Source: Candidatus Zixiibacteriota bacterium (GTDB lineage Bacteria; Zixibacteria; MSB-5A5; DSPP01). Taken from it: DNA of 64,000 nt. The position numbers and the translations under genes are program-made. Below, piece after piece: positions 7,223-24,799 of this stretch (positions within the stretch are counted from its first letter, which is position 1; each line of letters opens with the position of its first letter). The notes below the pieces were generated by a model. It was not told the origin of the DNA, did not search any database, and saw only the letters and a list, made by a program, of their open reading frames with translations. Location of the stretch: contig JAKEHY010000020.1 of the NCBI GenBank assembly GCA_022614805.1, positions 89,449 through 153,448 on the forward strand, given 5' to 3'.

Positions 7223-7304
7223 AGAACACCTCCAGACTGCTCAACGGCTTTCGGCCCGGTTAAACTCCCTTTTGGGCATCCCCTCGCCCCGAACTTTCTC
7301 CAAT

Positions 7305-8795: not shown

Positions 8796-8798
8796 AGC

Positions 8799-10598
8799 TT
8801 AAAATTCAATCCGTAAGTTAATCCGGTTCAAAATAGCGTTGTCGGGTGAAAAAGGCATAAAGGCCTCTCCGGGATTAAACAATCCAAAACTATAAGCCAG
8901 ATTAACACGCTGTAAGATTCTTTGAATGCCCAAAATGAAGTCCAGTTCCCATCCCAAATCTTTGGATAGTCCGGTGGGAATGGCGGGCGGCGCGATTAAC
9001 TCGGAACGCACATCGTTATCCAGCTGGTTTTGCCGGTAGGTGTGAAAGATGGCATCGAAGGAAACCTGCCGGTGCGGTCGAAAACCGGCACCTGCCGTTA
9101 GAATTTGAAGGTTGGCCAGCTCCGGGTCCAGCACCTCGCCGTAGTACTGGAAATTGGCAAAACCGCCAAACCGACCGGAGTTATCCTCGTAACCGGTCTG
9201 CCGAAACTCCTGCGAAATCGAATCTCCGCTTACCTTATCCCCAGAGCCGAGGGAATAGCCCAGGGTTAAGCTGGGCCGCAAGTGATGATCGGTAGCTGCA
9301 AAGGTTGCCCCAAAATCAAGTGCGTATGCCTCCTGGTCGCGCTGTTTGTCGGTACCCCGCAGCAAGCCGGCTTGCAGCCAGCCTGTTATAAACCTTTTTG
9401 GGCGGCCGTAATAGGAAAGGCCCCAGTACACTGGTTCGCGGTTGCGGGCATCGGAGTCCCGGCGTTTCAGCATATAAACGTTGGCTTCGTTTTTGCCATC
9501 CGGGATAAAGCGAACCCGGAAAAGGAAATCATCCCAGGTACGGTATTTCTCATCCTGAAAGGGGAAAAGGGAGGGAAGAAAAGAAGCCTCCAGCACCACC
9601 GGTTGGGTTTCATAGAAGTAAAGCCGGACGGCGTCGAGGTATTCGTCGAATAGCCACTCCCGTTGATCCCGCACCCGCTGTTTGCCGACCATTAAAGCCG
9701 CCTTTCGTCCCGCCGGGGCGCGCAAAAGCAAGTATGCCTGGATGGCCTGAAATTCAAAGCGGGTCGACTCCGCCGTGGAGGGGCGGTTCGGGAACGTGCC
9801 AAAGGTGTACTTTTTCCGCAGCCGCAGTTGCAAAAAGCTCTGCACCTCCGGCGCCCAGTTGCCAGCCGCCTCCAGCCTTAGGGCCGGCTCGGTATCCTGA
9901 TAGTCGTCCTTCTGAACTTCAGATAAAGTGTAGCGTTTCTCCAGACGAGTCGTCTGACGGTAGTCGCCGGAAAGAAGCAATTGGTCACCGACTCGGAGAT
10001 GGGGAAAGTTGATTCCGCCCTCGTCGGCGGTCAGGTTGCCGAAAAGCTCGTTTTCCAAATAGCGCGCCGAGCCGTACAAATCGGTCTCCTCCGTCACCAA
10101 AATCTTCAAGCCGGATATTTCAATGGTGTCCGGCGGCTTGCTGTCAAAGATCAGCCGGGTAATCGTTCCTTTGATTTTGTCCGACGCTTTGATTTCGTTC
10201 CAGTCGATTTTATCAGCCGTCCAAGTGCCTTGTTCACTCACATTACAGGTGATTTCCAGCCGCATTCCGTCTTTTAACGCTTGAATTCCTACGGTACCCT
10301 CCCCTCGGGCCGGGAAAAGGGTTCTGGCTTCCACTTTTATTTTGAGGCCGAAAAGGACGAAAGAAGAATCCTTGCGGTCCAGCTTATCGATTGTCCCCCG
10401 CAGCTTGGGCCGGCGGGCCTTCGCCAGTTTTTCTACCGAGCGGGCGATGAATATTCCTTCCCCGCTCCAGCTACCGGAGACCTCCACCCCGTCCCCTTCT
10501 TTCAGCTTGGTGTACGGCCCGGCCTCCGTGCTTTTGCTCAGCCCAAGCGTTAGGGCGAAAACGGAAAACCACAGTATCGTCCGGTTTCTGTTCAACAT
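8799..10598 (-). CDS. Two DUF5666 domains fused to an alginate-export (AlgE-like) outer-membrane beta-barrel
   Basis: ATG at 10598 with AAGGAGG SD, overlapping the upstream TGA. Signal peptide. N-terminal half is paralogous to the next gene. C-terminal barrel has VGKQR..D.REWLFDEYLDA, YGEVLDPELANL and DLGWELDF, ending in F. Confidence 0.7.
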   Translation of the reverse strand: MLNRNRTILWFSVFALTLGLSKSTEAGPYTKLKEGDGVEVSGSWSGEGIFIARSVEKLAKARRPKLRGTIDKLDRKDSSFVLFGLKIKVEARTLFPARGEGTVGIQALKDGMRLEITCNVSEQGTWTADKIDWNEIKASDKIKGTITRLIFDSKPPDTIEISGLKILVTEETDLYGSARYLENELFGNLTADEGGINFPHLRVGDQLLLSGDYRQTTRLEKRYTLSEVQKDDYQDTEPALRLEAAGNWAPEVQSFLQLRLRKKYTFGTFPNRPSTAESTRFEFQAIQAYLLLRAPAGRKAALMVGKQRVRDQREWLFDEYLDAVRLYFYETQPVVLEASFLPSLFPFQDEKYRTWDDFLFRVRFIPDGKNEANVYMLKRRDSDARNREPVYWGLSYYGRPKRFITGWLQAGLLRGTDKQRDQEAYALDFGATFAATDHHLRPSLTLGYSLGSGDKVSGDSISQEFRQTGYEDNSGRFGGFANFQYYGEVLDPELANLQILTAGAGFRPHRQVSFDAIFHTYRQNQLDNDVRSELIAPPAIPTGLSKDLGWELDFILGIQRILQRVNLAYSFGLFNPGEAFMPFSPDNAILNRINLRIEF

Positions 10599-11233
10599 CA
10601 ATCCCTCCTTGTGCTGGTTTTTGTAAGCCGCAGTTCCATTATAGGAGAAACAGCAGCGGCGCTTTGCTGTGACCCGGGCGTTAAGGCTGGTGTCTCCGTC
10701 CCCCACGGCCCAAAGAGGTCGGTGCCTTCCACCACCAGTATCTTGAGCCCGGAGATTTCAAAGGTATCCGGCGGGGTCCCGTCGAAGGCCAAGCGGGTGA
10801 CCGTCCCTTTGATTTTATCCGAGGGCTTCAGTTTGCCGGTTTCAATTTTCCTGGCTATCCAGTTTCCGAACTCATCCACGCGCGAAGTCACCTCCACACG
10901 CATTTTAGCTTTGAAGTTTTCAAAGCGCACGGCCTGCCCGCCGTTGTCCATAAATTCGGTTTTGTCGTCCACCTTGATTTTCACCCCGAACAGAACAAAG
11001 CTTTTCTCCGGCGTCAAAATTTTGACGATGGCCCCGCGCAGCTTGGGGCGGCGGGGGTCCGGCAGCTTTTCGATGTCGTCGGCCACAAAAACGCCGGCTT
11101 TTTTGTCCCATTCGCCGTCTACCTCCACGGCGTCGCCGATTTTCAGCTTCATATACTCCGGTTTAGGAGAGGCAGACGCCGGCACGCTTGAAAAAAGCAG
11201 GAACGGCAGTACAGAAAACAGCATTTTACGCAT
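10598..11233 (-). CDS. Periplasmic DUF5666 (OB-fold-like) repeat protein
   Basis: Signal peptide. LKIGDAVEVDG / LRGAI..I......FVLFGVKIKVD.KTEF / IKGTVTR...DTFEISGLKILV repeats. Confidence 0.7.
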   Translation of the reverse strand: MRKMLFSVLPFLLFSSVPASASPKPEYMKLKIGDAVEVDGEWDKKAGVFVADDIEKLPDPRRPKLRGAIVKILTPEKSFVLFGVKIKVDDKTEFMDNGGQAVRFENFKAKMRVEVTSRVDEFGNWIARKIETGKLKPSDKIKGTVTRLAFDGTPPDTFEISGLKILVVEGTDLFGPWGTETPALTPGSQQSAAAVSPIMELRLTKTSTRRD

Positions 11234-12533
11234 TAGATTCTCCTCTTGGGGTTTTCTTCGATTGTTCCAAAAGTGGAATGGCCAGCTTTTTCCAGCGCGG
11301 GCGGAGGGAATACAGACAGGCCAGCCGCAAAAGACTTGCGGCCTCCCACCAGGTGGTCCTTTTTTGAAAATTTTTTCCGGTCATCGGGCTTTTGCTTGGA
11401 TGATAAGCTTCAAGAAAATTCGTTCGAGCTTGCCCTACGATTTTTTCCGGAAGCGAATGCTGCTTGCCGCGCAAAATAAGGTGGGCCAAAAAATTCCCCA
11501 CATCCTGGGCCGGGTCCCCCCGCGACAGGGCGTCTGTGTCCAAAAGGGTCGTTCGATTTGAACCGGCCAAAAGCTGTTTGTCGTAAAAGTCGCGATGCAA
11601 CGGCGCAAATTCTTTTTCTTCCATGGCCGGACGGCTGCTTTCAAGTTTTTTCCAAACTTCGTGAACGTTTTCCTGCAACGCCGGATAAATTCGGGCGGTT
11701 TCAAAGGCAAGGTCTTTAAGCTCGGACAGGGCTTCCTCGATAGTGTAGAGCGAAAGGTTTTGGAGTTTTGCCGAATGGAGCTTTTGCAGCGCCAACCCGG
11801 CCGAGCGGCAGCCGGGAATGAAACGCTCCGTTTCAATTAAATCGTGCAGGGAGGAGTCGGCAATCGCTTCCAGCCACAAAACCCCTTCCGAAGTGGCGGT
11901 AACCGGATGGGGTACGCGGATATTCTCTTTACTTGAGGCGCCAAAGCCGTTTTCTTCGAGGGTTCGGAGCTGCTCAAAAAGCCCGGCGGCTTTTTCCGAC
12001 CGCACCAACTTGGCTACTAAAGAAAGGGTGCGTCCGTGTTCGCTTACGCTTATGTTCAAAATTCCCCGCCGTTCAAGCCGGTATCCCAAAACGTCCACTT
12101 TCACTACCTGCGCTGTGCCGTTTAAGCCAAGGGTTTGGGTCAGGGGCTGCAAAAGACCGGGGCCGGGCGCCGGATCGAAGAATTGCGCCAGCGTCTTGAT
12201 CTTCGGATCGAAGGGAAAAACCGGAACTACCAGCCGGATGTTGGCAACAAAAAAGGCGTTCGGCTCCTTGGCGTAGGCCGGAATCATTTCGGAAGGGGAT
12301 AGAAGCCGTCCGAAGAAAATCCGGGGTTGGTGGCCGTGCTCGTCCACCGTCGAAAAGCGGTACTGAATGAGAAATTTTCCTTCACCCTTGGGAATGACTC
12401 TTGGAATGTGAAAGTTTGCAATTTCCACCGTACGGCCCCAGAGACGGGAGAGCGGGGCCTGAAAAATCGGCGGCATTACGGCTTCGTCCGTAGCCGCCGC
12501 CAGGTGGGAATAGGCCGGGCTCGGTTTCAGCAT
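11226..12533 (-). CDS. Aminoglycoside-phosphotransferase/choline-kinase-like (APH) protein
   Basis: LVAKL lysine, HRDFYDKQLL catalytic loop, LLDTD and D+GNFLAHL. Start reassigned to ATG 12533. Confidence 0.75.
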   Translation of the reverse strand: MLKPSPAYSHLAAATDEAVMPPIFQAPLSRLWGRTVEIANFHIPRVIPKGEGKFLIQYRFSTVDEHGHQPRIFFGRLLSPSEMIPAYAKEPNAFFVANIRLVVPVFPFDPKIKTLAQFFDPAPGPGLLQPLTQTLGLNGTAQVVKVDVLGYRLERRGILNISVSEHGRTLSLVAKLVRSEKAAGLFEQLRTLEENGFGASSKENIRVPHPVTATSEGVLWLEAIADSSLHDLIETERFIPGCRSAGLALQKLHSAKLQNLSLYTIEEALSELKDLAFETARIYPALQENVHEVWKKLESSRPAMEEKEFAPLHRDFYDKQLLAGSNRTTLLDTDALSRGDPAQDVGNFLAHLILRGKQHSLPEKIVGQARTNFLEAYHPSKSPMTGKNFQKRTTWWEAASLLRLACLYSLRPRWKKLAIPLLEQSKKTPRGESNA

Positions 12534-13897
12534 AAGATTTCCTCGACGGCCTGCAAAATTTCTCTCGTCTTTTCCGGCCAGCCGGCATCCAAACGGCGAA
12601 AGGGGGAAACCGACAGAAAGAAAAGCGAAAGGGCCGTCCACCACTTGAGCTCTTCCATTTCGACTTCTACTTTCGCCCAGTCCGCGTACGCTTCCGCCCA
12701 GCGCTGGGCCAACTCTCCAGTTTTAGGTAGTCGGTTTTCAAGTTCGAGCAATCGGAGGTGGGCGGCAAAATTCCCCACGTCGGCCAACGAGTTTCCCGTG
12801 TGGCTGCGGTCGAAATCGAGAAAGCCGACTTTCTCCCCGTCGATGAGCACCTGCCCGTAGTAGAAATCTCCGTGTACAAAACTTAATTCAAGTTTGCTTT
12901 CCGGTATTTGATTTTCCAACCTTTCACGGACTTTTGTAATCTGGCCGGCGTCCTCCGGCAAAAGCGCGCCAAGCATTTTTTCGGTTTCGCTGGCTTCAAC
13001 CAAAAAATCCCGGGGACGCCAGACGGAGAGCTTTTCATCAAACTGCCTGTGCAAACCGGCCAAAGCCGCGGCCGTGCGCTCGATGACGGAAGCGGCCGCC
13101 TCTGTTGTAAGCAATTCCAAAAGGGGTTTGCCGGCCAGAGCTTCCATAAGTAATATCCGGCGTTCCGGCTCATAGCTGTAAGGTGTGGGAACGACCGGAA
13201 GGCCTTGGTTGGATACGTTTTTCTTCAAAACTTGCATTCGGCGGAACACCTCTTCTCCCTGATTTTCTCCATACACCCGCCAGTACACTTCCACGTTCCG
13301 TTTTTCTTCCGTTTGGTGATGAATGGCCTTCGTTTCCGAACGGAAAACCGCCCGACGCTCCGGCTTGTAGCGTATCAACTCTGTATTCAAACGCTTGTCC
13401 GACAGTCGCCATTGGTCAGACGGATAAGCAGAAAGATTTTCGTAGAGAAACCGCTGCAGTTTTTTCGGCTCCTCCAAAATACGCAGCACGTCCAAAACGG
13501 CGTCGTTGGGAAAGGCGAAAAGCAAAGCGCATGCTTCGTCCCAGCGTGCAACCGAAGGGCCAAACGGCACATCCACCCAGCGGTGGTTTTCGGCCTTGGT
13601 GGCCGATAAAAGATATCCGTTGGTGGTCGTCCCCTTGGCGTAAAAGATGACGGGCTCCCGCTCTCCTGTTTCGGAATTTTTCCTCGCGAACTCGTAGGCC
13701 ACAATACAGCTCGTTTTCGGCTTGTAACGCAAATAGAAGATGCGGCCCTCCTCCACTTCGGCGCCAGCGGCACAAAGCGCCTCCCGGGCTTTGGCCGCGT
13801 CCAAAAGCAGCGGCAGGCCGGTTAAAACTTCATCCGGCGGCAGGGGGATGCTACTCACCGGCGACGGAAGCGGACTCGAATAAATTTCGCTTTTCAT
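12527..13897 (-). CDS. APH-like phosphotransferase with a duplicated N-terminal RYKP module
   Basis: HGDFYYGQVL, FLDFD and DVGNFAAHL motifs. YLRYKP and IRYKP modules. Likely ATG at 13897. Confidence 0.75.
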   Translation of the reverse strand: MKSEIYSSPLPSPVSSIPLPPDEVLTGLPLLLDAAKAREALCAAGAEVEEGRIFYLRYKPKTSCIVAYEFARKNSETGEREPVIFYAKGTTTNGYLLSATKAENHRWVDVPFGPSVARWDEACALLFAFPNDAVLDVLRILEEPKKLQRFLYENLSAYPSDQWRLSDKRLNTELIRYKPERRAVFRSETKAIHHQTEEKRNVEVYWRVYGENQGEEVFRRMQVLKKNVSNQGLPVVPTPYSYEPERRILLMEALAGKPLLELLTTEAAASVIERTAAALAGLHRQFDEKLSVWRPRDFLVEASETEKMLGALLPEDAGQITKVRERLENQIPESKLELSFVHGDFYYGQVLIDGEKVGFLDFDRSHTGNSLADVGNFAAHLRLLELENRLPKTGELAQRWAEAYADWAKVEVEMEELKWWTALSLFFLSVSPFRRLDAGWPEKTREILQAVEEILC

Positions 13898-15716
13898 TCT
13901 GGGTAAGCCACTCCTCGTAGAAAACAAAAAATCTCCCCTTTTTATTCAACAATTCCTGCACCGTTCCTTTTTCCACTACCCGTCCCTCCTCCAGGTAAAC
14001 CACCCGGTCGGCCAGATTCAAAAAGTTCAGCCGGTGGGTTATCAAAAGCAGCGTCCGGCCTTCTTTTAACGCGGCCAAAGCATCCTCGGCCACTTTTTCG
14101 GCCTGGGGGTCGAGCCCCGTGGCCGGTTCGTCAAAAATCATGATTTTTGAATCGCGTAACGCGGCCCGGGCAAAGGTGATACGCTGGCGCTGGCCACCGG
14201 AGAGGGTCTGGCCCCCTTCTCCCACCAACGTGTTATACCCTTCCGGCAGATTGCGGATAAATTCGTCGGCTCCAACCTTGCGGGCGGCTGCGGCTATTTC
14301 CTCAAAACCCGCCATGGGATTGCCAAAAGCGATGTTTTCCAGAATCGACGTGCGGAATAGAAACGCCTCCTGTGAAAGGGAGGTGATCCGCTTGCGCAGC
14401 GATTTGATTCGGTAGTCTCCTATCGGTGTCCCATCGATGTAAATAGTTCCCGAAGCCGGTTCATAAAGCCGCAAAATCAGCTTGGCTATTGTCGATTTTC
14501 CTGCGCCGCTCGGGCCGATGATAGCGGTGGTTTTTCCGGCCGGCAAAGAGAAGCTCACCTCCTCGAGCGCTGGCTGTCCGGGCTGGTAGGCAAAGCGGAC
14601 CTTATCGAACCGAATTTCCCCTTTTATATCCCGGGCGGAAATCGCTTCCGGCTTGTCGGTGACCTCCGGCTGGATGTGCAAAATCTCCAGAATCCGCTCC
14701 CCGCAAACGGTGGCCTTGGCCGTGCGGGAGGAAAGCTGTGCCACGTCCCGCAGCGGTCTGTAGGCGGTACGCAGATAGGAAAGAAAAATCAAAAGATTGC
14801 CGGCGGTAAGCTGCCCCGCCAAAACCTCCTTTACGCCGAAAAATAAAACCAGAACCGTTCCCAGAGCGGTCAAAACATCCACCCAGCGGGAATAGGCGGC
14901 TTCCAAGCGAGTGGCTTTGAGACCGGCCTTGACATCGGAAGAAACTGATTTCCCCAAAAGTTTTTCGTGCCATTTTTCCCGGCCAAAGACCTTGGTCACG
15001 CTGATGCCGGAAACCCCTTCATAGGCGGCGGCAGAAAGCTGCCCCTCCTTTTTGCGCGCCCGGCGGGAGGCCTCCTTCAACTTGGTGGAAAAACGCAGGG
15101 TGGTCAAAAACAGAAAAGGCATTACAGCAAAAGCCAGCAAAGTCAGCTTCCAGTTCATATAGAACATCAAGCCGAGCATTCCAAAAACGATGAAAATCCG
15201 GCTCCCCAGAGTGATGAAAATCGAAGTTAAAAGTTCCTTCAGGAGGTTGATGTCTCCCGTCAGGCGCATCATCAGCTCGCCGGTCTGGCGGTAGTCGTGG
15301 TAGCTCTGGGGGAGGCGCTGAATGTGGGAAAAAAGCTCCAGCCGGATGGCGCCGGTCACCTTTTGACCGGCCGAGGCAAAAAGCACGTTCTGGGCGTAAG
15401 AAAATAAAGCTCCAAAAACTGCGAGCAGAATTACCCCTCCGGCGGCCAGAAGTAAAACGGTTATCGGGTCCCATTGGGTCAGGGGTACCAGAAAGTTCCA
15501 GTCCCGCTGGGCCCGGGATGGAATCAGGATGTAATCAAAGACAATCTTGAGAGGCCAGGGCCGAGCCAGCTCCACCAATGCCAGACCCAAAAGGGAGGCT
15601 CCGCCCAAAGCCAGGTTTTTTTTATGAGACCTTAAGTGTTTTCCAAAATGGTGGAAGATCCGGGACAAGCCGGCCCAATCAATACGGGCAAACGGAGATT
15701 TGAATTTTACGGCCAT
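13851..15716 (-). CDS. ABC exporter, fused permease and ATPase (MsbA-like type IV)
   Basis: TM domain, Walker A GPSGAGKST, signature LSGGQRQR, Walker B IFDE, H-loop ITHR. Confidence 0.9.
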   Translation of the reverse strand: MAVKFKSPFARIDWAGLSRIFHHFGKHLRSHKKNLALGGASLLGLALVELARPWPLKIVFDYILIPSRAQRDWNFLVPLTQWDPITVLLLAAGGVILLAVFGALFSYAQNVLFASAGQKVTGAIRLELFSHIQRLPQSYHDYRQTGELMMRLTGDINLLKELLTSIFITLGSRIFIVFGMLGLMFYMNWKLTLLAFAVMPFLFLTTLRFSTKLKEASRRARKKEGQLSAAAYEGVSGISVTKVFGREKWHEKLLGKSVSSDVKAGLKATRLEAAYSRWVDVLTALGTVLVLFFGVKEVLAGQLTAGNLLIFLSYLRTAYRPLRDVAQLSSRTAKATVCGERILEILHIQPEVTDKPEAISARDIKGEIRFDKVRFAYQPGQPALEEVSFSLPAGKTTAIIGPSGAGKSTIAKLILRLYEPASGTIYIDGTPIGDYRIKSLRKRITSLSQEAFLFRTSILENIAFGNPMAGFEEIAAAARKVGADEFIRNLPEGYNTLVGEGGQTLSGGQRQRITFARAALRDSKIMIFDEPATGLDPQAEKVAEDALAALKEGRTLLLITHRLNFLNLADRVVYLEEGRVVEKGTVQELLNKKGRFFVFYEEWLTQNEKRNLFESASVAGE

Positions 15717-15717
15717 A

Positions 15718-16911: not shown

Positions 16912-18188
16912 ATCGTTTTTCCCGCCAGAGACGACGGTATGGTTGCTTCCGTCGGTTTGTTTCCCACTTCAACGGATTGCCGGTAAAAACTTTCCAAAGT
17001 TGCCACACTCTTTTTCAGATCAAACTTTTCTTCTACTTTTTTTCTTCCTTCCCGCGCAAAGCGGGCCGCCAATTCGGGAGAATCAAGAACTTTCTCAATG
17101 GCCTCGGCCAAAGCGGGCGGGTTATCCGGCGGAACTAGAAGGCCGTTTTTGCCTTCGTCAACTATTTCCGGTATCCCCGATACGGTGGTGGAAACTACCG
17201 GACAGCCGGTACCGAGAGCCTCCAGAAGCACGGTCGGCAGGGCATCCTGATTGCCGTCCGTATCCACCGTGCAGGGCAGGGCCAAAACGGAAGCCCGCTT
17301 GAGACAGGGCAGCACTTCGACCTGGGTTTTGGGACCCGCAAAGGTTACAATATCGGCAAGCCCCAACGCCTGCCTTCTGGCTTCCAGTACTTCCGCCTCT
17401 TCCCCCTGGCCGATGATGATGCAGCGGAAGGGGATTTTCTTTTCCTTCAAAATGGCGCAGGCCTTCAGCAAATCCGGAAACCCTTTTTTGGGAACCAATC
17501 TCCCAATGGATAAAATAAGATCCTGCTCACGCGGCAGTTGGGGTTCGAAGTTGAAAAAATCCAGACGGATGCCGTTGTATAAGACTTTAATTTTTTCCGC
17601 CGGAACCGTTGGATACGTGGAAGTCAGAAATCGGCGATTAAACTCCGTGACTGTGATCACAAAACGGGCGGCCAGCAATTTTTCTTGCAGCATTTTTTGA
17701 TTGACGGAATCCCGGAAAATATCTTTGGCGTGGGCGGTGAAGCTGAAGGGCAGCCCGGAAATCCGGCTGACAAAATAGGCCGCCGTGGAAGGAAGGCTGG
17801 CAAAGTGAGCGTGCAGGTGCATAACCCCGTGACTCAAGGCCAAGGCGGCCGCCCAGGCGGAGCCGAAAAAAAGTTCCATAAGCGAAGGTTCGTTCTGTGG
17901 CACCAGTTCTTCGAGAAGCTTCCAGAGCTCGGCCCGGCGGGGAGAAAGGGTGGGCCAGTTTTCGGCCAAAACGGCCCACCCTTTTTTGGGCTCAAGCTCG
18001 TCCAGGTAGTAAACTGGAGCCTTGATTTCGGCCACCTGCGGATGAAAACGCCCCTCGTTCGGCTTTTTCAGGGAAAAAATCGTGACCTCCAAACCCCGCC
18101 GTTCCAGTTCCAAAATCTCGTTCAGAATGAAAGTCTCCGAAAGCCGGGGATACATTTTGACGAAATAGCCGACTCTTAAGGGACTCAT
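16908..18188 (-). CDS. GT4 family glycosyltransferase (WcaL-like)
   Basis: YPRLSETFI, HLHAHFA, FTAHAKDI, IGRLVPKKG, LPTVLLEA. Confidence 0.9.
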   Translation of the reverse strand: MSPLRVGYFVKMYPRLSETFILNEILELERRGLEVTIFSLKKPNEGRFHPQVAEIKAPVYYLDELEPKKGWAVLAENWPTLSPRRAELWKLLEELVPQNEPSLMELFFGSAWAAALALSHGVMHLHAHFASLPSTAAYFVSRISGLPFSFTAHAKDIFRDSVNQKMLQEKLLAARFVITVTEFNRRFLTSTYPTVPAEKIKVLYNGIRLDFFNFEPQLPREQDLILSIGRLVPKKGFPDLLKACAILKEKKIPFRCIIIGQGEEAEVLEARRQALGLADIVTFAGPKTQVEVLPCLKRASVLALPCTVDTDGNQDALPTVLLEALGTGCPVVSTTVSGIPEIVDEGKNGLLVPPDNPPALAEAIEKVLDSPELAARFAREGRKKVEEKFDLKKSVATLESFYRQSVEVGNKPTEATIPSSLAGKTI

Positions 18189-19438
18189 TTCAACACCCCT
18201 CGGCTTGTTAAAAGCGGATGGCAGAGCTCGGCCAGCTTGGCGGCTCCATCCAAGGGCAGGGGATTTTTCTTACGTGCCTGAAAAAGCTTGTTGGTGGGGT
18301 CATTTATCATCGAATAGACCACGTCGAATAGTTTTCCGGGTGATAAATCCACGGGAGAAATATAATTCACCAGCCCCAACTCCGACAGCCGCTGGGCTCG
18401 AAGCAGTTGCTCCTTGCGAGGGTAAATCCTTGGAATAATTAAGGCCTTTCTTGCCGATGATAGAATTTCTACCACGGTATTATACCCTCCCATGGAAATG
18501 ACCAAATCCGCTTTTTCAAAATGGGGAGCAAGTTCCGGCAGAAATTCTTCAAATCGGACGGGTAATCCGATCGCTTCTGCAATCAACATTCTTCTCCATT
18601 TTTCCTGCATAAAGGGGCCGAGAACAATGGTTGTTGCGGCGTTGATTTCATCACCCAACTCTTTCAGCATAACCAAGTAGTTGTACACGATTTCCATCCC
18701 ATCTTCGCCACCTCCGATGGTCAAAAGAATTTTTTGCCGAGCGGAACGCCCGACTTTTTTAGCGGGCGAACTTGATGAGGGGTTACCGTCGCTAATAAAT
18801 CCTGTAAAGTCGGTTTTTTCCCGGGCCTTACAGCCAAAACGGTATTCACTGACCGGATCAAAGAACTTGGAAGTCCCGTATATGAAAATCCGGTCGTACA
18901 CTTCGTCCAGAACGGGATAAACCCCTTCCGTCTCCCAGGCCGCGCAAACCTTTTCCGGTTCGTCCAAAATGTCCCGCAGCCCCAAAACCAGCGCGGGAGA
19001 ACTGTTTTTGGCTTTCAGTTCCTGAAGGGTTTTCTTGATTTCCCCCTTCATTCCCAGCGGGGCGTGGTCCACTAGAAAAATGTGGGGCTGGAACGTGCGA
19101 ATCGCTTCGGAAATCAAGTTCTGACGCAATTCAAAAATCTTTTCAAAAGAGCTCCCCAGCGAACGGGGCTGGTAGCGGCTTTCTCCGACTTTCACCACCG
19201 CCGGCAGCTTGATGAAATCGGTCCCCTCCGGCAGGCGGTATCGCTCCGCCTGCTGCTGGCCGGTCACAATTAAAATGGCGCTTTGCGGATAGGCGGAGTT
19301 AAACGCTTTGGCAATTTTCAAACAGCGCCGGAAATGCCCCAATCCAAAAGTGTCGTGGGAATAGATTAAAAGTCGAGGGGGCTCGGCTGCCTTCTCGGTG
19401 ACCGCGCGTGGGACAACTGGTGCGGGCTCAAGCTTCAT
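18185..19438 (-). CDS. GT-B glycosyltransferase, GT28 C-terminal-like (COG4671 type)
   Basis: YSHDTFGLGH..R, LGLRDILD, GGGEDG, SMGGYNT, EQLLRA. Start reassigned to ATG 19438. Confidence 0.8.
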   Translation of the reverse strand: MKLEPAPVVPRAVTEKAAEPPRLLIYSHDTFGLGHFRRCLKIAKAFNSAYPQSAILIVTGQQQAERYRLPEGTDFIKLPAVVKVGESRYQPRSLGSSFEKIFELRQNLISEAIRTFQPHIFLVDHAPLGMKGEIKKTLQELKAKNSSPALVLGLRDILDEPEKVCAAWETEGVYPVLDEVYDRIFIYGTSKFFDPVSEYRFGCKAREKTDFTGFISDGNPSSSSPAKKVGRSARQKILLTIGGGEDGMEIVYNYLVMLKELGDEINAATTIVLGPFMQEKWRRMLIAEAIGLPVRFEEFLPELAPHFEKADLVISMGGYNTVVEILSSARKALIIPRIYPRKEQLLRAQRLSELGLVNYISPVDLSPGKLFDVVYSMINDPTNKLFQARKKNPLPLDGAAKLAELCHPLLTSRGVLK

Positions 19439-20841
19439 GCTTCTCCCGGTTTCTGACCCATTCCGAGATAATTGAAGCCGAGGCGAGCCAAGATTTCCGG
19501 CACCAGCAGGTTGCGGGCGTCCACAATGTTTTTGGATTTCATCTTTTGGCCGATTTCCTCCCAGTTCAGGGCCATAAACTCCGGCCATTCCGTCAGAACA
19601 ACCAAAGCATCCGCTTTTTCGGCAACCTCTTCCGGATTGGGGGCCAGCTTCAGCTCCGGCCAGAGTGCACGGGCCTCCCCCTCTGCTACCGGGTCGTAGG
19701 CCTGCAGCAAGGCCCCCTTTTCTTCAAGCCGTTTCATCACGGCCAAAGCCGGCGAACTGCGCAAGTCGTTGGTATGGGCTTTGAAGGTCAGCCCCAGAAC
19801 GCCGATGGTTTTTCCTTTCAATGTTCCGACCAGCTTCTCCAGTTTCCCCACCACCAGCCGGGGCTGGCGGGCGTTGGCCTCCTTTACCGCCTCGGCGATG
19901 GAGAGGCGCACCCCTTGTTTTCGGGCCAGGTTTAAGATGGCGTCCAAGTCCTTCGGCAAACAGGAGCCGCCGAAGCCGGGGCCGGGGTTTAGAAACTCCG
20001 GGCTGATGCGGGAATCCAGTCCCATTCCACGGGTCACCTCGGTGACGTTTAGGCCCGCCGCATCGCACAGGTTGGCCAGCTCGTTGACAAAGGCCACCTT
20101 GGTGGCCAGAAAAAGATTGGAGGCGTATTTAATCATTTCGGCCGTTTCGTTGTTGGTGACCACGATGGGGCAGGCATCCATCATCCCGACTCGGTAGAGC
20201 TGGGCAATCGTTTCAATTGCCTCCGGCTGGTCGCCGCCGATGACAATCCGCTGGGGCCGAAAGAAGTCCATCACCGCGGTCCCTTCGCGCAAAAACTCCG
20301 GATTGGAAACGACTGCCACCTGTTTTTTGGCGGCGCCGTTTTTGGACAACCGATTTCGCACCTGCAAAGCGGTGCCCACCGGCACGGTCGATTTCAAAAC
20401 GAGAATCTGTTTCGGTGTCAAAAGCGGCCCCAAGGTTTCCACCACTTCAAAAACGGCGGAAAGGTCCGCCTCGCCGGAGGGGAGGGAAGGGGTGCCCACA
20501 GCTAAAAAAATCGCATGCGCGCCTTTTATCGCTTCGGCCAGTTCGGAAAAAACACCCAGTCGGTGGCGGCGGAGGTTGGCTCCAAACAGTTCGGGCAAGC
20601 CGCGCTCGTGTATTCGAATTCGTCCGGCACGCAGTTCTTTCGATTTATCGGGGTCTTTTTCCACCAACGCGACCGTGTGGCCAAACTGGGCAAATCCGGC
20701 GGCCGCCACCAGCCCCACAAACCCGCCCCCCAGAACGGCCACCCGAAGCCCGGTGGAAGGATAGACCGGAAGCCCGGCTTCGGTGGCCAGCCCGTGCGAC
20801 AGTTCCCTCTTCTTTAGCTTGTTGTCGGTATCAGTCCGCAA
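19435..20841 (-). CDS. ugd: UDP-glucose/GDP-mannose dehydrogenase
   Basis: GGGFVG Rossmann motif, SNPEFLREG, IKYASN, GFGGSCLPKD catalytic Cys. The start codon (TTG 20841) is uncertain. Confidence 0.9.
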   Translation of the reverse strand: MRTDTDNKLKKRELSHGLATEAGLPVYPSTGLRVAVLGGGFVGLVAAAGFAQFGHTVALVEKDPDKSKELRAGRIRIHERGLPELFGANLRRHRLGVFSELAEAIKGAHAIFLAVGTPSLPSGEADLSAVFEVVETLGPLLTPKQILVLKSTVPVGTALQVRNRLSKNGAAKKQVAVVSNPEFLREGTAVMDFFRPQRIVIGGDQPEAIETIAQLYRVGMMDACPIVVTNNETAEMIKYASNLFLATKVAFVNELANLCDAAGLNVTEVTRGMGLDSRISPEFLNPGPGFGGSCLPKDLDAILNLARKQGVRLSIAEAVKEANARQPRLVVGKLEKLVGTLKGKTIGVLGLTFKAHTNDLRSSPALAVMKRLEEKGALLQAYDPVAEGEARALWPELKLAPNPEEVAEKADALVVLTEWPEFMALNWEEIGQKMKSKNIVDARNLLVPEILARLGFNYLGMGQKPGEA

Positions 20842-21032
20842 GAGTCGGTCTCATTTCTTGCTTAATAACAAATGCAATAATCCCTCCCCCAAAACTACAT
20901 CAATATATATGCCGAAAGCAGTGGTTGTGACTAACTGATTGCCGTGCGGGATGTTACGGTTTTGCGAAGGCGTCAATTAGGCAAGGTGGATTGGTTGATT
21001 TCAACCAAACGGTTTCTTTCAACCAGCTAATA

Positions 21033-22424
21033 CTATAGCCCAAATTTCTGAACCCGATAGCGCAACGCTTCCCGGCTCAACTTCAATTTTCGAGCGGCTT
21101 CGGAAACGTTACCCTCTGACTCTTCAAGGGCGCGGACAATCAATTGCTTTTCCACTTCTACTATATCTATGCCGTCCGGGCCGAATTCCACCTTTACGGC
21201 CGTGTTCGGGCCAACTGCCACCAAGGGGGGCTTTCCGGCCTGCAACCGCAAATCGGCCGGCTCGATTTCCCCGCCGGATGAAAACAGGAGGGCCCGCTCC
21301 AAAAGCTGCCGCAGCTCCCGCACGTTGCCGGGCCAAGCGTAGTCCTGAAGCATCTTTTTCGACGGTTCGCTTAGTTTTTTGAAGCCCGGCCCGCCGGGCC
21401 TTTTGTTGGCCGCTTTTTGCAAAAAATGCTCGGCCAGAAGCAGAATGTCCTTTTTTCTTTCCCGCAGGGGGGGCAGAGTGAGGGTGACGTGATTCAACCG
21501 GAAAAAAAGGTCCTGTCGGAACTGGCCGGTCTTTACGGCCTGGCCCAAATCCCGGTTGGTGGCGGCGATGATGCGCACGTCTATGGATAAATCCCGCAAG
21601 CCGCCCACGTGGCGCAGCTTTTTCTGTTCAATCAGGCGCAAGAGTTTGGCCTGGGATTCCGATGACAGATCGCCGATTTCATTTAAAAACAAAGTCCCCC
21701 CTTCGGCCACCTCCGCCAGCCCCCGCTTGGATTGACGGGCATCGGTGAAAGCCCCCTTTTCATAGCCGAACAACTCCCCTTCCTCCAGCCCGCGCGGCAG
21801 GGTGGGACAGTTTACTTCGATGAAAGGGGCGGCGGAAAAAGCGCTTTTGAAGTGCAAAAGCCGGGCAACCAGGTCCTTCCCCGTCCCGGTTTCCCCCAAA
21901 ACCAAAACCGGCGGCAGTTCTGAAACTTTCACCATGACCAACTCGGAAAGTTTCTTGATGAAAGCCCGTACCTCGCGCGCTCTTGAGCTTTCTCCCAAGA
22001 ATTCCTCTTCCGCAAGCCGCTCGGCCTCCCGCTTTTGATAAAAGGAAACCGTGCGCGCCAGCCGGGCGTGCGCAAGGGCCCGCTCGATGGCGATCGCCAC
22101 CTCGTCGGTGTCCAGGGGCTTGCGCAAAAAATCGATTGCCCCCAGCTTCATCGCCTCCACGGCCGAGGCGATGGTGCCGTAAGCGGTCACGATGATGACT
22201 AGGATGTTGGGGTCGGTTTCCCGGATTTTTTTCAGGGCCTCCAGCCCGGAAAGCCCGGGCAGCTGCATATCCAAAAGCACTATATCGGGCAAAAGTTTGT
22301 CCAGAAGCGAAAGCCCCTCCTCCGCCGTCCCCACCGCCGAGGCCTCATGGCTCTTTTGGGAAAGCGCCCGGGAAAGGGAACGCCCCAAAAGAATTTCGTC
22401 GTCGATGATTAAAATCTGCGCCAT
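21033..22424 (-). CDS. Sigma54-dependent response regulator (NtrC family)
   Basis: Receiver domain (IIDDE, LLDMQLP), GETGTGK, GAFTDA, WPGNVREL, Fis-type HTH. Confidence 0.92.
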   Translation of the reverse strand: MAQILIIDDEILLGRSLSRALSQKSHEASAVGTAEEGLSLLDKLLPDIVLLDMQLPGLSGLEALKKIRETDPNILVIIVTAYGTIASAVEAMKLGAIDFLRKPLDTDEVAIAIERALAHARLARTVSFYQKREAERLAEEEFLGESSRAREVRAFIKKLSELVMVKVSELPPVLVLGETGTGKDLVARLLHFKSAFSAAPFIEVNCPTLPRGLEEGELFGYEKGAFTDARQSKRGLAEVAEGGTLFLNEIGDLSSESQAKLLRLIEQKKLRHVGGLRDLSIDVRIIAATNRDLGQAVKTGQFRQDLFFRLNHVTLTLPPLRERKKDILLLAEHFLQKAANKRPGGPGFKKLSEPSKKMLQDYAWPGNVRELRQLLERALLFSSGGEIEPADLRLQAGKPPLVAVGPNTAVKVEFGPDGIDIVEVEKQLIVRALEESEGNVSEAARKLKLSREALRYRVQKFGL

Positions 22425-23861
22425 TTAACTTTCCTCCCGCCAGAGGGGTAAGGTGAGGGTCATCGTCGTGCCCGCTCCCGGACGGCTTTCCACTTTAATG
22501 GAGCCGCCGTGCAAATCGACGATTTTTTTGGCCTGCGCTAACCCCAAGCCGGTGCCGCCCGGCTTGTCGGTCACAAACGGCTTGAAGACCCGCTCGATAA
22601 AAACCGGGGGGATTCCCTTGCCGGTGTCGCTAACGCGCAGGACCGCTTCTTTGCTGTCAGCGGCGGCTTCGATAGTAAGGGATCCTCCTTTGTCCATTGC
22701 TTCGACGGCGTTTACGATTAAGGCCGAAAGCACCTGCTCCATCAAAACCAGGTCGACCAAAACGGGAGGCAACGCAGCCAGATGGGTGGTCACGCCGATT
22801 TTCTTGGACTCCAGTAACGCTTCGTTCAATCCGAGGGTCTCGTAAACCAGTTGCGGCAACTCGGTTTTGGTTGGCTGGAGATCCAAGGGCTTGGCAAATC
22901 CGAGAAGCCTTTGTATCCAGACATCCAGCTTGTCCACGGACTGAATGATGTCCGCCAGCGACTCTTTAATGGCCGGCTGGCTTTGGCACTCCGCCAGCAT
23001 CACCTGCGAAGCGGCCCGAATCCCAGCCAAGGGATTGCGGATGTTGTGGGTGGCAAAGGCGGCCAGCTCCCCCAAAGCTGCCAACCGTTCCTGCGCGCGC
23101 ATCTTTTGCTCGTACTCTTTCAGCGCTTTGGCCATCCGGTTGATGGCTCCAGCAAGTGCACCCCATTCGTCCTGACTTTGCACGACCACTTTGGCTTCGA
23201 AGTCCCCCCGGCTGATTTTGGCGGTCACACGCCCCACTTCTGCTATTGGGCCGGCCAGCCAGCGCTGCAGAAGAAAAACGGTAGCGAGTAGTTGGGCCAA
23301 AGCGAGAAGGGCTGCTCCGCCCACCAGATAGGTAATGAGATTGCCGGAGCTGGCCGCCGCCGAAAGGGCGGCTTTTTCCAGCCCCTGATAGTACTGGTTC
23401 AAAACCGCCACGTCGGAGGTCACCTCGTTGCCGATTTCGTCCAATCTTTCAGCCCGCCGCTCCTTCGGGTTTCGTGCCCCAGCAGCGGAGGGCTTGAATA
23501 TGTTTTGCGCAACATAAACCAATTCCCGCTGGGTCTCCTCCAGGGCTTCCAGATGGTCAGTCTCCTCCTCCGTTTCGGCGGCCGACTTCAGTTGTCCCAT
23601 CTGCTGGACGACCCGTTCCTGAATGCTCCAGAAATCGGGCTCGGCACTCCGGTCACCGGAAAGAAAATCGCTGCCGGCCGAAATCTGGCGGTATATGTCG
23701 GCCCGCAACCGCTCGGCGGCTACTCCCTGATTGTAGGCCCGGGAAAGGTCTGCGGCCGAACGCCGCCAGCGCCTCGAAGCCCAGAGAGCAGCTGTGCCGA
23801 TGGCCAGTACGACCAAGAACAAAAGCACATAACTTAAAGTCAGCCGGGAGCGGATACTCAT
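22425..23861 (-). CDS. Sensor histidine kinase (two TM helices, periplasmic helical domain, HAMP, HisKA, HATPase)
   Basis: HNIRNPL H-box, DTGKGI, GTGLGL. Adjacent to the response regulator. Confidence 0.92.
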   Translation of the reverse strand: MSIRSRLTLSYVLLFLVVLAIGTAALWASRRWRRSAADLSRAYNQGVAAERLRADIYRQISAGSDFLSGDRSAEPDFWSIQERVVQQMGQLKSAAETEEETDHLEALEETQRELVYVAQNIFKPSAAGARNPKERRAERLDEIGNEVTSDVAVLNQYYQGLEKAALSAAASSGNLITYLVGGAALLALAQLLATVFLLQRWLAGPIAEVGRVTAKISRGDFEAKVVVQSQDEWGALAGAINRMAKALKEYEQKMRAQERLAALGELAAFATHNIRNPLAGIRAASQVMLAECQSQPAIKESLADIIQSVDKLDVWIQRLLGFAKPLDLQPTKTELPQLVYETLGLNEALLESKKIGVTTHLAALPPVLVDLVLMEQVLSALIVNAVEAMDKGGSLTIEAAADSKEAVLRVSDTGKGIPPVFIERVFKPFVTDKPGGTGLGLAQAKKIVDLHGGSIKVESRPGAGTTMTLTLPLWREES

Positions 23862-24799
23862 TGGGAAAAGATGCCGGAGTTTTTAAACCAGAGCACGGTT
23901 TTCCGCAGGGAGCGGGCAAAGTTGGCCTTTGGCAAAAAGCCCAAAACTTTCCGGGCCAGCTTGATATCCGCCCAGGTATGCAGAACGTCCCCCTGTTTGC
24001 GGGGAGAAAACTCCGGCTGGGAATTAGTTTGCAAAATCTTCTGCAATCCAGAAAAAAGCTTGTTGACCGAAATCCGCTTTCCGGAGCCGACGTTAAAAAC
24101 TCCTCCCACTGCTTTTTTCGACCGGGCTGCCAGTTCCGCCGCGTGGACCACATCCTCGACATAAACGAAATCGCGGGTCTGATTGCCGTCCCCGTAAATA
24201 GTGGGGGGATGCCCGGTCGAAAGCTTTCGGGTGAAGTTGGGAATGGCGTTGGCATACTGGGAAAAAGGATTTTGCCGTGGGCCGTACACGTTGAAAAGCC
24301 GCAGGGCCACCGTTTCCAGCCCGTACAGCCGCCAATACAGAGAACAGAGTTGCTCTCCCGCCAGTTTGGATAGGGCATACGGGGATTCCGGGTGGGGAGG
24401 AAAACTCTCCTTGAACGGCAGTTTGGGATACTCCCCGTAAACAGCGGAAGAGGAAGTGTACACCACCCGTTTTACTTTGGCCCGCCGCGCCGCCTCCAGC
24501 ACGTTATACGTCCCCTTTAAATTCACCTCCCAGGTGGTTAGCGGGTCTTCAAGTGAGGTTAAAACGGACACCACGGCCGCCAAATGAAAAACCGCATCCG
24601 CCCCTTCCGTCAAACGGCAAAGCAAATCAAAATCCCGCACATCCCCTTCCACCAACTCCGCGCGTTCAAGCCCGGACAGATTCTCTTTGCGCCCAGAGGA
24701 AAAGTTGTCCAGAATGACGACCAAATGCCTCTTTTTAAGGAGAGAGACAGCCAGATGGGAGCCGATGAAACCCGCTCCGCCGGTCACTAATGCGCGGAT
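23858..24799 (-). CDS. NAD-dependent epimerase/dehydratase (extended SDR), probably starting at a non-canonical ATC
   Basis: (I)RALVTGGAGFIGSHL, YALSK, RLFNVYGPRQ. GAGGAG SD lies 9 nt upstream of ATC at 24799. Confidence 0.88.
   Translation of the reverse strand: MRALVTGGAGFIGSHLAVSLLKKRHLVVILDNFSSGRKENLSGLERAELVEGDVRDFDLLCRLTEGADAVFHLAAVVSVLTSLEDPLTTWEVNLKGTYNVLEAARRAKVKRVVYTSSSAVYGEYPKLPFKESFPPHPESPYALSKLAGEQLCSLYWRLYGLETVALRLFNVYGPRQNPFSQYANAIPNFTRKLSTGHPPTIYGDGNQTRDFVYVEDVVHAAELAARSKKAVGGVFNVGSGKRISVNKLFSGLQKILQTNSQPEFSPRKQGDVLHTWADIKLARKVLGFLPKANFARSLRKTVLWFKNSGIFSQ

Follow-up and report, generated by a model that had tools for sequence, protein, structure and literature searches.

Positions 4829 to 24799 of a 64,000-nucleotide stretch of DNA (hereafter the window) from an uncultured Zixibacteria bacterium, whose genome comprises 2.56 Mb in 38 contigs, hold a glycan locus. 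We read it, with a probability of roughly 0.55, as a signal-induced operon which makes and secretes an anionic glycan. The glycan would be assembled in the cytoplasm, phosphorylated by a pair of kinases, exported by an ATP binding cassette (ABC) transporter and passed to the outside through an AlgE-type barrel. The locus extends, in a lineage-specific way, a cassette that is common and mobile and on which apparently nothing has been published. Each component can be assigned to a known family, and their combination matches none of the pathways that were compared, i.e. alginate, O9a-type glycans, lipopolysaccharide (LPS) core, Wzx/Wzy and GlgE. An earlier note on this DNA had proposed a phosphorylated, uronic-acid-containing glycan as the product. 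This proposal is partly supported: the parts, the kinase fold and the porin stand and sensor control is likely, while the reading of the product is plausible but unproven.

Conservation and spread of the cassette

A profile of the first kinase of the locus (kinase A) was scanned against species-representative genomes, which yielded 79 loci; the neighbourhood of each was defined as ±10 kb around the kinase match. The Zixibacteria loci of this set carry the whole 13-gene block. Five other genomes of the class, all from different families, possess the same set of genes in the same order. Recurrence of a 13-gene order at 35–55 % protein identity across Zixibacteria families places the arrangement far beyond chance. 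Within the phylum the distribution is patchy (34 of 285 genomes).

The core of the cassette consists of a GT28-like glycosyltransferase (GT), two GT4 enzymes, an MsbA-type ABC exporter and the kinases A and B, in diderms completed by the AlgE-type porin. This order was found in Krumholzibacteriota, Planctomycetota, Verrucomicrobiota, Acidimicrobiia, Micrococcaceae, Enterobacter, Mixta and Lampropedia, and altogether the order of the six- to seven-gene core holds in at least six phyla as well as on plasmids. The porin gene follows the kinase genes in nearly all diderm copies and is missing from the copies of Actinomycetota. The earlier note had named a lack of co-occurrence in other genomes as something that would speak against it; strong co-occurrence was found both in the 79-locus scan and on plasmids.

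Ten predicted conjugative plasmids of E. coli/Escherichia carry the cassette beside an IS630 element, together with the porin and a sugar dehydrogenase. The one looked at closely is the IncFIA/FIB plasmid NZ_CP012501.1 of E. coli, with the cassette at 159889–170067. Its eight genes sit between those of the IS630 transposase and of formate dehydrogenase-N, and a heat-stable enterotoxin gene is located about 3 kb from them. This minimal eight-gene form contains no gene able to make an aglycone. A plasmid-borne copy in Paracoccus adjoins a divergent sensor kinase and regulator pair.

The tree of the kinases consists of phylum-level clades with several lineages misplaced, a topology that would fit vertical descent plus transfer. 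In two metagenome-assembled genomes labelled as Rubrobacteraceae (L035, L037), a variant locus combines four to five kinase paralogues with a single ABC exporter, a histidine phosphatase and two to three sulfotransferases; the kinases of these genomes nest within the Zixibacteria clade. In public data the kinase family comprises 4,873 representatives of 50 % identity clusters at E ≤ 1e-30. A large protein database has no specific name for the kinase, just generic ones (APH family, Bud32, RdoA, thiamine-kinase-like). No publication on the cassette was found in the literature searched, which covered plasmid and protein accessions, DUF5666, exopolysaccharides of Zixibacteria and AlgE-like proteins in combination with ABC exporters. 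The same literature gave no characterised pathway, in agreement with the earlier statement that no characterised product is known for this gene combination.

The kinase pair

The AlphaFold2 (AF2) model of kinase A (predicted local distance difference test score, pLDDT, 94) displays a bilobal kinase with an extra N-terminal beta/alpha domain. Its best folds in Foldseek are PsiK, choline kinase, APH(3') and steroid kinase, at a probability of 1.0. The features of APH/choline kinases, namely the bilobal fold, the HxD…N/Q loop and the DxD metal site, are all present. H342, G343, D344, Q349 and D361 are invariant, as are the motifs HGD…Q and DFD. The catalytic loop H-(G/R)-D…Q/N is kept in both paralogues across lineages; in kinase B it is conserved in 51 of 53 B-type sequences. 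As judged from the kinase A model and its Foldseek matches, the predicted fold is that of a small-molecule kinase, as had been proposed before.

Kinases A and B form a single fused protein in Enterobacter, Mixta, Paracoccus, Ardenticatenales and Planctomycetota as well as in most of their database relatives, and most of the best representatives of the kinase family are such double kinases of about 780 amino acids (aa). The frequency of this fusion argues that A and B act together. Furthermore, a 1,128-aa representative joins a 3'-phosphoadenosine-5'-phosphosulfate-type sulfotransferase (Sulfotransfer_3) to the double kinase. On four metagenome contigs the sulfotransferase-kinase-kinase gene directly follows the genes of the GT28-like enzyme, the two GT4 enzymes and the ABC exporter (e.g. 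L102:10001-13387), and stand-alone sulfotransferases lie beside kinase and ABC genes in two loci (L035, L037). The simplest reading of a protein with both activities is that sulfate and phosphate go to one acceptor, which favours the kinases as decorators of a glycan and not as makers of a primer. These data suggest that the kinases add anionic groups to the glycan. No porin gene follows the sulfotransferase-kinase-kinase fusion on these contigs (L102, also L103 and L104).

A match to the Kdo/WaaP kinase family was not found among Pfam and NCBIfam models, which gave just weak matches to APH, LxmK, APH(3') and Bud32. An identity as maltokinase (Mak/Pep2) or glucosamine kinase was considered and rejected: only the region of the catalytic loop aligns (E 0.002–0.05), maltokinase is absent from the top 50 Foldseek folds, and Pfam gives no Mak_N_cap match. 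Neither Pfam nor the AF2 model of kinase A reveals a methyltransferase or a coiled-coil ruler on the kinases. Apparent ABC-kinase fusions of about 1,000 aa in GC-rich loci were rejected as long out-of-frame open reading frames (ORFs), because their N-terminal parts have no ABC similarity; there is no such fusion among the best 150 kinase representatives.

The sequence RYKP occurs twice in kinase A (residues 51–64 and 171–184 of the 456-aa form), once in the extra N-terminal domain, where R57 and K59 are invariant, and a second time in the true N-lobe as part of the invariant RYKPExR. In the AF2 model each copy closes a strand that leads into a hairpin. This repeat suggests a possible internal duplication of the N-lobe.

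An AlgE homologue as probable outer-membrane channel

The AF2 model of the porin (pLDDT 84) has about 18 strands after residue 200. Foldseek aligns it with AlgE at E 1e-23 and a template modelling score (TM) of 0.80, 12 orders of magnitude ahead of the next fold (4e-11), and a profile of the porin family finds AlgE in the Protein Data Bank at E 1e-25. Both share the motifs GRQ, GYA-GSG, FRQTG, ELSNL, YHK and ELDLV. The earlier note had described an AlgE-like outer-membrane channel and had asked for a structure prediction; the model matches AlgE and the protein proves to be a true homologue. Conserved Arg/Lys residues are located at positions 241, 306, 325, 379 and 507. At window positions 9676–9690 (residues 304–314 of the 599-aa form) the genus has GKQRVRDQREW, matching GRQRLRED of AlgE including both arginines of R-x-R; the position of the second arginine is acidic in most other members of the porin family (74 % of aligned sequences).

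The stand-alone DUF5666 protein encoded before the porin duplicates the N-terminal region of the latter (about 40–50 % identity). Such a separate gene exists just in the own genus; other Zixibacteria have the porin-borne copy only. In Planctomycetota, beta-helix and CarboxypepD_reg proteins adjoin the porin. In Enterobacter sp. BIGb0383 a gene for an alginate lyase of polysaccharide lyase family 5 (PL5) lies right after the porin gene on the opposite strand (L078:13438-14529; also L080), and genes for a Sel1-repeat protein and for type VI secretion are found upstream. The lyase, beta-helix and CarboxypepD_reg neighbours are a hint that an acidic chain is processed outside the cytoplasm.

Sugar supply, glycosyltransferases and ABC exporter

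The closest solved relatives of the epimerase are the UDP-hexose/HexNAc 4-epimerases WbpP and WbgU; the UDP-GlcA 4-epimerase scores lower. Its apparent start is an ATC at 24799, 7–8 nucleotides (nt) after the Shine-Dalgarno sequence GAGGAG and with an in-frame TAA two codons upstream. The first canonical start, GTG at 24787, would cost the first strand of the Rossmann fold. The arrangement of Shine-Dalgarno sequence and ATC is kept in all three genomes of the genus, and remoter relatives have ATG or TTG.

The profile of the GT28-like family matches YjiC, MurG and OleD over the C-terminal half only, and enzymes with soluble acceptors (YjiC, OleD) and with lipid acceptors (MurG, MGD1) score about equally. 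An N-terminal motif, YSHDTxGLGHxRR, is invariant in the family. A 590-aa protein in the place of the GT28-like gene in some Planctomycetota was rejected as a member, since profile comparison does not show it to be GT28-like. Two Krumholzibacteria contigs have GT4b and GT4a as one in-frame fusion. The ABC protein reaches about 400 bits with TIGR02204 and TIGR02203, below the cut-offs of these models; the genome encodes three further MsbA-like paralogues (four in all), and a look at conserved residues of the membrane domain was uninformative.

Probable control by a two-component system

The histidine kinase has two transmembrane segments around an outside domain of about 145 aa, followed by HAMP, HisKA and HATPase domains. 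The regulator keeps the phospho-acceptor Asp, and its loop is GAFTDA, as against GAFTGA in the majority of orthologues. The spacer between the regulator gene and ugd was compared in 17 Zixibacteria loci. The enhancer core TGGTTnAnnTnAA occurs in 14 of these, against 0.1 expected from shuffles. In the window 4 nt separate the two repeats of the enhancer, and the sigma54 box follows about 95 nt downstream. A box resembling TGGCAC-N5-TTGC was seen by eye in all 17 spacers, 126–176 nt past the regulator stop; it is the best consensus match of the spacer in 16 of them, with a perfect −24/−12 match at several loci. The genome encodes rpoN (E 3e-58), and in Planctomycetota, Acidimicrobiia, Mixta and Paracoccus the cassette has sigma54 activators or sensor pairs of other types at its flanks. 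On account of the conserved enhancer and sigma54 box, of rpoN and of the sensors which flank the cassette elsewhere, the operon from ugd to the surface-protein genes is most likely switched on by the embedded two-component system, with the regulator presumably binding the enhancer and activating the promoter. Induction by the sensor system, as suggested in the earlier note, is accordingly likely. A TGGCAC upstream of the epimerase gene had been considered as second sigma54 promoter and was dropped, since it is not conserved in the genus.

Organisation of the locus and neighbouring genes

All long ORFs between 4829 and 24799 lie on the minus strand (Table 1). ORFs and Pfam/NCBIfam models confirm the parts list of the earlier note, with each gene where it had been placed. 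The unit had been given as 8799–24799. Its genes stand and its lower end does not, as the unit runs on for about 4 kb through two surface-protein genes to 4829.

The overlapping or near-contiguous arrangement described before is likewise seen at most junctions, which overlap or are 0–3 nt apart. ATGA overlaps join epimerase and histidine kinase, ugd and GT28-like gene, GT28-like gene and GT4b, as well as GT4b and GT4a. The genes of histidine kinase and regulator abut in TAAATG and 1 nt separates GT4a from the ABC gene. The overlaps amount to 7 nt between kinases A and B, 8 nt between kinase B and DUF5666 and 1 nt between DUF5666 and the porin (TGATG, translationally coupled), and the first CarboxypepD_reg gene begins 3 nt after the porin gene. 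Just two larger gaps exist, the spacer of about 190 nt between regulator and ugd and 82 nt before the last gene.

Beyond 4829 convergent genes follow. One, at 4–2979 on the plus strand, encodes a large protein with an MMPL/RND-like membrane domain fused to a LolA-like domain; the other, at 2876–4294, is a weak DUF1302 match. On the other side, a tRNA-His gene and a cox operon precede 24799.

Table 1 Features of the glycan locus in window coordinates
Feature	Position	Strand	Evidence
Sugar-nucleotide 4-epimerase, NAD-dependent short-chain dehydrogenase/reductase, WbpP/WbgU-like, probable ATC start	23858..24799	-	Pfam Epimerase E 1e-68
Sensor histidine kinase, HAMP/HisKA/HATPase	22425..23861	-	Pfam; ATGA overlap with epimerase gene
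NtrC-type sigma54 activator (receiver domain REC, AAA+ with GAFTDA, HTH_8)	21033..22424	-	Pfam Sigma54_activat E 9e-57, Response_reg, HTH_8
Probable enhancer, two tandem GGTT-N6-AACC inverted repeats	20993..21024	-	Sequence; conservation in Zixibacteria spacers
Sigma54-type −24/−12 promoter-like box, CGGCATATATATTGAT	20899..20914	-	Position conserved over 17 spacers
UDP-glucose/NDP-sugar 6-dehydrogenase (ugd), start codon uncertain	19435..20841	-	Three UDPG_MGDP_dh domains; TIGR03026 441 bits
GT-B glycosyltransferase, GT1/GT28 superfamily, candidate first/priming transferase	18185..19438	-	Glyco_tran_28_C E 1e-10
GT4 glycosyltransferase b	16908..18188	-	Glycos_transf_1 E 7e-41
GT4 glycosyltransferase a	15718..16911	-	Glyco_trans_1_4 E 4e-34
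MsbA-type ABC exporter half-transporter (transmembrane domain, TMD, and nucleotide-binding domain, NBD)	13851..15716	-	ABC_membrane and ABC_tran
Kinase A, APH-fold, alternative start ATG 13897	12527..13927	-	APH E 9e-18
Kinase B, paralogue of kinase A, catalytic loop HRDFYDKQ intact	11226..12533	-	APH E 5e-7
Small periplasmic DUF5666 protein with signal peptide	10598..11233	-	DUF5666 E 4e-15
Outer-membrane AlgE-type beta-barrel, signal peptide and N-terminal periplasmic DUF5666 region	8799..10598	-	Alginate_exp E 8e-27, above cut-off
Secreted CarboxypepD_reg-repeat protein, type IX secretion system (T9SS)-type C-terminal domain	7305..8795	-	Pfam; tail matches sub-threshold
Secreted CarboxypepD_reg-repeat protein with He_PIG and C-terminal dockerin	4829..7222	-	Pfam

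The two surface proteins

The two proteins encoded after the porin are repeat-rich, non-enzymatic and secreted. The first gene is conserved after the porin in 27 loci, and the position of the last gene is conserved in Zixibacteria. The tail of the first protein (496 aa) reaches 18.7 bits with the Por_Secre_tail model (cut-off 23), with further sub-threshold matches to the tails of PorU and PorZ. The C-terminal domain of its Krumholzibacteria orthologues attains 30.9 bits against a cut-off of 27. The genome also has an SprA-like translocon gene. In Porphyromonas, T9SS cargo is linked to an anionic LPS that carries a phosphorylated mannan (PMC8545088).

The Bacteroidetes-type O-glycosylation motif D-(S/T)-(A/I/L/V/M/T) occurs 13 times in the first protein and 10 times in the second, against 2.1 and 3.8 expected from shuffles, an enrichment which is overstated and may reflect the repeat alone, because most copies sit in the conserved TDxxG turn of the CarboxypepD_reg repeat. 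Thirteen other proteins tested have 0–2 copies.

Proposed mechanism

The genes of epimerase, histidine kinase and regulator would form an upstream unit whose membrane kinase probably senses an extracytoplasmic signal. The histidine kinase would phosphorylate the regulator, which in turn would bind the two enhancer sites and activate the sigma54 promoter. This promoter would drive the genes from ugd through the two surface proteins, presumably as one transcript, given the translational coupling. Ugd and the epimerase may supply UDP-uronic acid and a 4-epimerised sugar in the cytoplasm. The GT28-like enzyme is the candidate for the first linkage on the acceptor, and the GT4 pair would extend the chain. 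The paired kinases would then add phosphate esters to the glycan, to judge from their fold, the A-B fusions and the sulfotransferase-kinase-kinase fusion. By homology, the product is expected to cross the inner membrane through the MsbA-type half-transporter and the outer one through the AlgE-type barrel. In Zixibacteria the surface proteins, of which the first has a T9SS tail and the second a dockerin, may bind the product or organise it at the surface.

We would go further only tentatively. It is possible, but rather doubtful, that the cassette represents an undescribed secretion route with three GT-B enzymes that build the glycan in the cytoplasm, a double kinase (fused to a sulfotransferase in some lineages) that makes it anionic, an ABCB-type exporter and, in diderms, an AlgE-type barrel. 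This route would work without Wzx/Wzy, a synthase or an ABC-2 transporter, and in T9SS-bearing phyla such as Zixibacteria its product would be used also as an inducible matrix or anchor for two co-transcribed surface proteins.

Several observations weigh against the secreted anionic glycan. MsbA-type pumps usually take lipid-linked or amphipathic substrates. A Pfam scan of the locus found no initiating phosphoglycosyltransferase; polyprenyl-phosphate primer enzymes of WecA/MraY-type and Bac_transf are encoded elsewhere in the genome. The locus contains neither a periplasmic adaptor nor a polysaccharide co-polymerase (PCP), outer-membrane polysaccharide export (OPX) or AlgK-like partner, which leaves the transfer of a hydrophilic chain from the pump to the barrel unexplained. 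The lumen-facing charges of the barrel, in a rough count, are 19 basic and 17 acidic, with no clear positive bias. The substrate of the kinases is assigned from context only, and the sigma54 box of the window itself is weak, with three mismatches and TTGA against the consensus TTGC. Moreover, ugd is linked to the cassette in some lineages only (22 loci) and many copies lack ugd and the epimerase, so that uronic acid may not be a general feature.

Comparison with known systems and alternative readings

As in alginate secretion of P. aeruginosa, the porin is a true AlgE homologue, a gene for uronic-acid supply is linked, and a PL5 lyase or beta-helix gene adjoins the porin in some lineages. In contrast, Alg8/Alg44, AlgK, AlgX, AlgG and AlgL are missing from the locus, and an MsbA-type pump, two kinases and a porin with N-terminal DUF5666 region are found instead. 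An Alg8/Alg44-type synthase or an AlgK-type tetratricopeptide repeat lipoprotein was found neither within 4.8–24.8 kb nor among conserved neighbours in the 79 loci. In the E. coli O9a system (WbdA/B/C, WbdD, Wzm/Wzt) GT4 enzymes build a cytoplasmic glycan, a kinase-fold enzyme modifies it and an ABC transporter exports it, with the primer enzyme encoded outside the cluster; all four traits would recur here. However, the transporter is a TMD-NBD half-transporter and not of the Wzm/Wzt type, the two kinases have no methyltransferase or coiled coil, and an outer-membrane barrel takes the place of ligation to lipid A-core. The LPS inner core is made by GT-B transferases and sugar kinases on the cytoplasmic face (WaaG, WaaP, WaaY) and then moved by MsbA. 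The locus resembles it in the sequence of GT-B enzymes, kinases and MsbA-type pump, but has no Kdo/WaaP match and no heptosyl or Kdo transferases, and the cassette occurs also in monoderm Actinomycetota.

The Vi antigen enzymes TviB, TviC and TviE likewise lead by 6-dehydrogenase, 4-epimerase (180 bits with the TviC model) and GT4 to an acidic glycan; all scores are far under the family cut-offs, though, and Vi uses VexABCDE (ABC-2 plus OPX) and no kinases. NdvA/ChvA, exporters of cyclic beta-glucan, and the heterocyst exporter HepA are MsbA-like half-transporters for hydrophilic glycans, and their models match the ABC protein at 250–360 bits. These scores are also under the cut-offs; the locus lacks a cyclic glucan synthase and possesses kinases and a porin. 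Unlike Wzx/Wzy loci, it has no Wzx, Wzy or initiating phosphoglycosyltransferase. The earlier statement that Wzx/Wzy and synthase-type polymerases are missing holds within the locus, where the Pfam/NCBIfam scan detected none of these families. The anionic LPS of Porphyromonas gingivalis (PMC8545088) offers an analogy only: there, too, T9SS-tailed proteins go with an anionic, phosphate-bearing glycan, whose linking sugar comes from a uronic-acid pathway, but this LPS is Wzx/Wzy-made and linked to lipid A, and the present locus has no PorU or PorZ gene.

Other readings of the same genes have to be weighed. The product could be a lipid-anchored surface glycoconjugate made in the manner of LPS core. 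The GT28-like enzyme, related to MurG and MGDG synthase, would glycosylate a membrane lipid (e.g. diacylglycerol or a polyprenyl-diphosphate-sugar from a housekeeping enzyme), with extension by the GT4 enzymes, phosphorylation by the kinases at the inner face, comparable to that by WaaP and WaaY, and flipping by the MsbA-like pump, while the barrel would be secondary or release the glycan. The MsbA-related best models of the ABC protein, the match of the GT28-like profile to MurG, MGD1 and diacylglycerol glucosyltransferase, the porin-free cassettes of monoderm Actinomycetota and the primer enzymes elsewhere in the genome speak for it. Nevertheless it appears rather unlikely: a membrane lipid would not need the barrel that follows the kinases in nearly all diderm copies, the kinases match APH models and not Kdo/WaaP, and the GT28-like profile fits YjiC and OleD, with their soluble acceptors, equally well. 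Quite unlikely is a long acidic polysaccharide with ABC-dependent export, in which the GT4 pair is an alternating polymerase and the kinases cap the end and thereby set chain length and export, as WbdD does for O9a. It would be in line with the GT4b-GT4a fusion of Krumholzibacteria, which resembles two-domain polymerases, with the homology of the barrel to AlgE, a polymer channel, and with the lyase and beta-helix proteins next to the porin in other lineages. But the pump is not of the Wzm/Wzt or KpsMT ABC-2 type, the kinases carry neither methyltransferase nor coiled-coil ruler, a PCP/OPX or AlgK-like scaffold is absent from the locus, and the presence of two kinases, in some copies along with a sulfotransferase, agrees better with decoration than with one cap at the chain end.

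For Zixibacteria and Krumholzibacteria, the glycan might also be the anchor or the O-glycan of the two co-encoded surface proteins, comparable to T9SS cargo on the anionic LPS of Porphyromonas. The constant position of two CarboxypepD_reg proteins after the porin in both lineages, the T9SS-type tail together with the SprA-like gene, the motif count of the 496-aa protein and the Porphyromonas precedent point in this direction. We regard it as improbable, as E. coli plasmids, Actinomycetota and other carriers have the cassette but no proteins of this kind, which allows at most a lineage-specific use; moreover, the locus encodes neither an oligosaccharyltransferase nor a sortase, and the motif sits in the conserved turn discussed above. 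A synthesis independent of a lipid carrier, with kinases that make a sugar phosphate, GT4 enzymes that extend it as in GlgM or sucrose-phosphate synthase, and export of a small phosphorylated oligosaccharide, is very improbable. Here the fusion with the sulfotransferase, which points to late decoration, stands together with the Foldseek ranking of generic APH/choline kinases and the missing maltokinase and Mak_N_cap matches against the weak match to maltokinase and glucosamine kinase around the catalytic loop, the conserved Gln of this loop, the lack of a primer enzyme in any copy and the equal numbers of kinases and GT4 enzymes (two each). Finally, an island for modification and efflux of xenobiotics or antibiotics, made up of a macrolide-type GT, APH-type kinases and an efflux pump, is scarcely credible. 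Weak matches of the GT28-like protein to MGT and OleI models and the APH superfamily membership of the kinases could be cited for it, but sugar dehydrogenase, epimerase, two GT4 enzymes and AlgE-type barrel are conserved in fixed order and the scores with resistance models are far under their cut-offs.

Significance

If the reading as an operon for a secreted anionic glycan is true, the cassette would define an overlooked class of acidic, phosphorylated and sometimes sulfated envelope glycans. For secretion biology it would pair an AlgE-type channel with an ABC exporter, a combination which to our knowledge is not part of the textbook pathways. The carriers include IncF plasmids of E. coli as well as plasmids or chromosomes of culturable Paracoccus, Mixta, Lampropedia and Pseudarthrobacter, which makes it testable in ordinary laboratory hosts. 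For the uncultured Zixibacteria, the locus would represent a concrete, sensor-controlled surface-coat module tied to proteins displayed by T9SS and dockerin.

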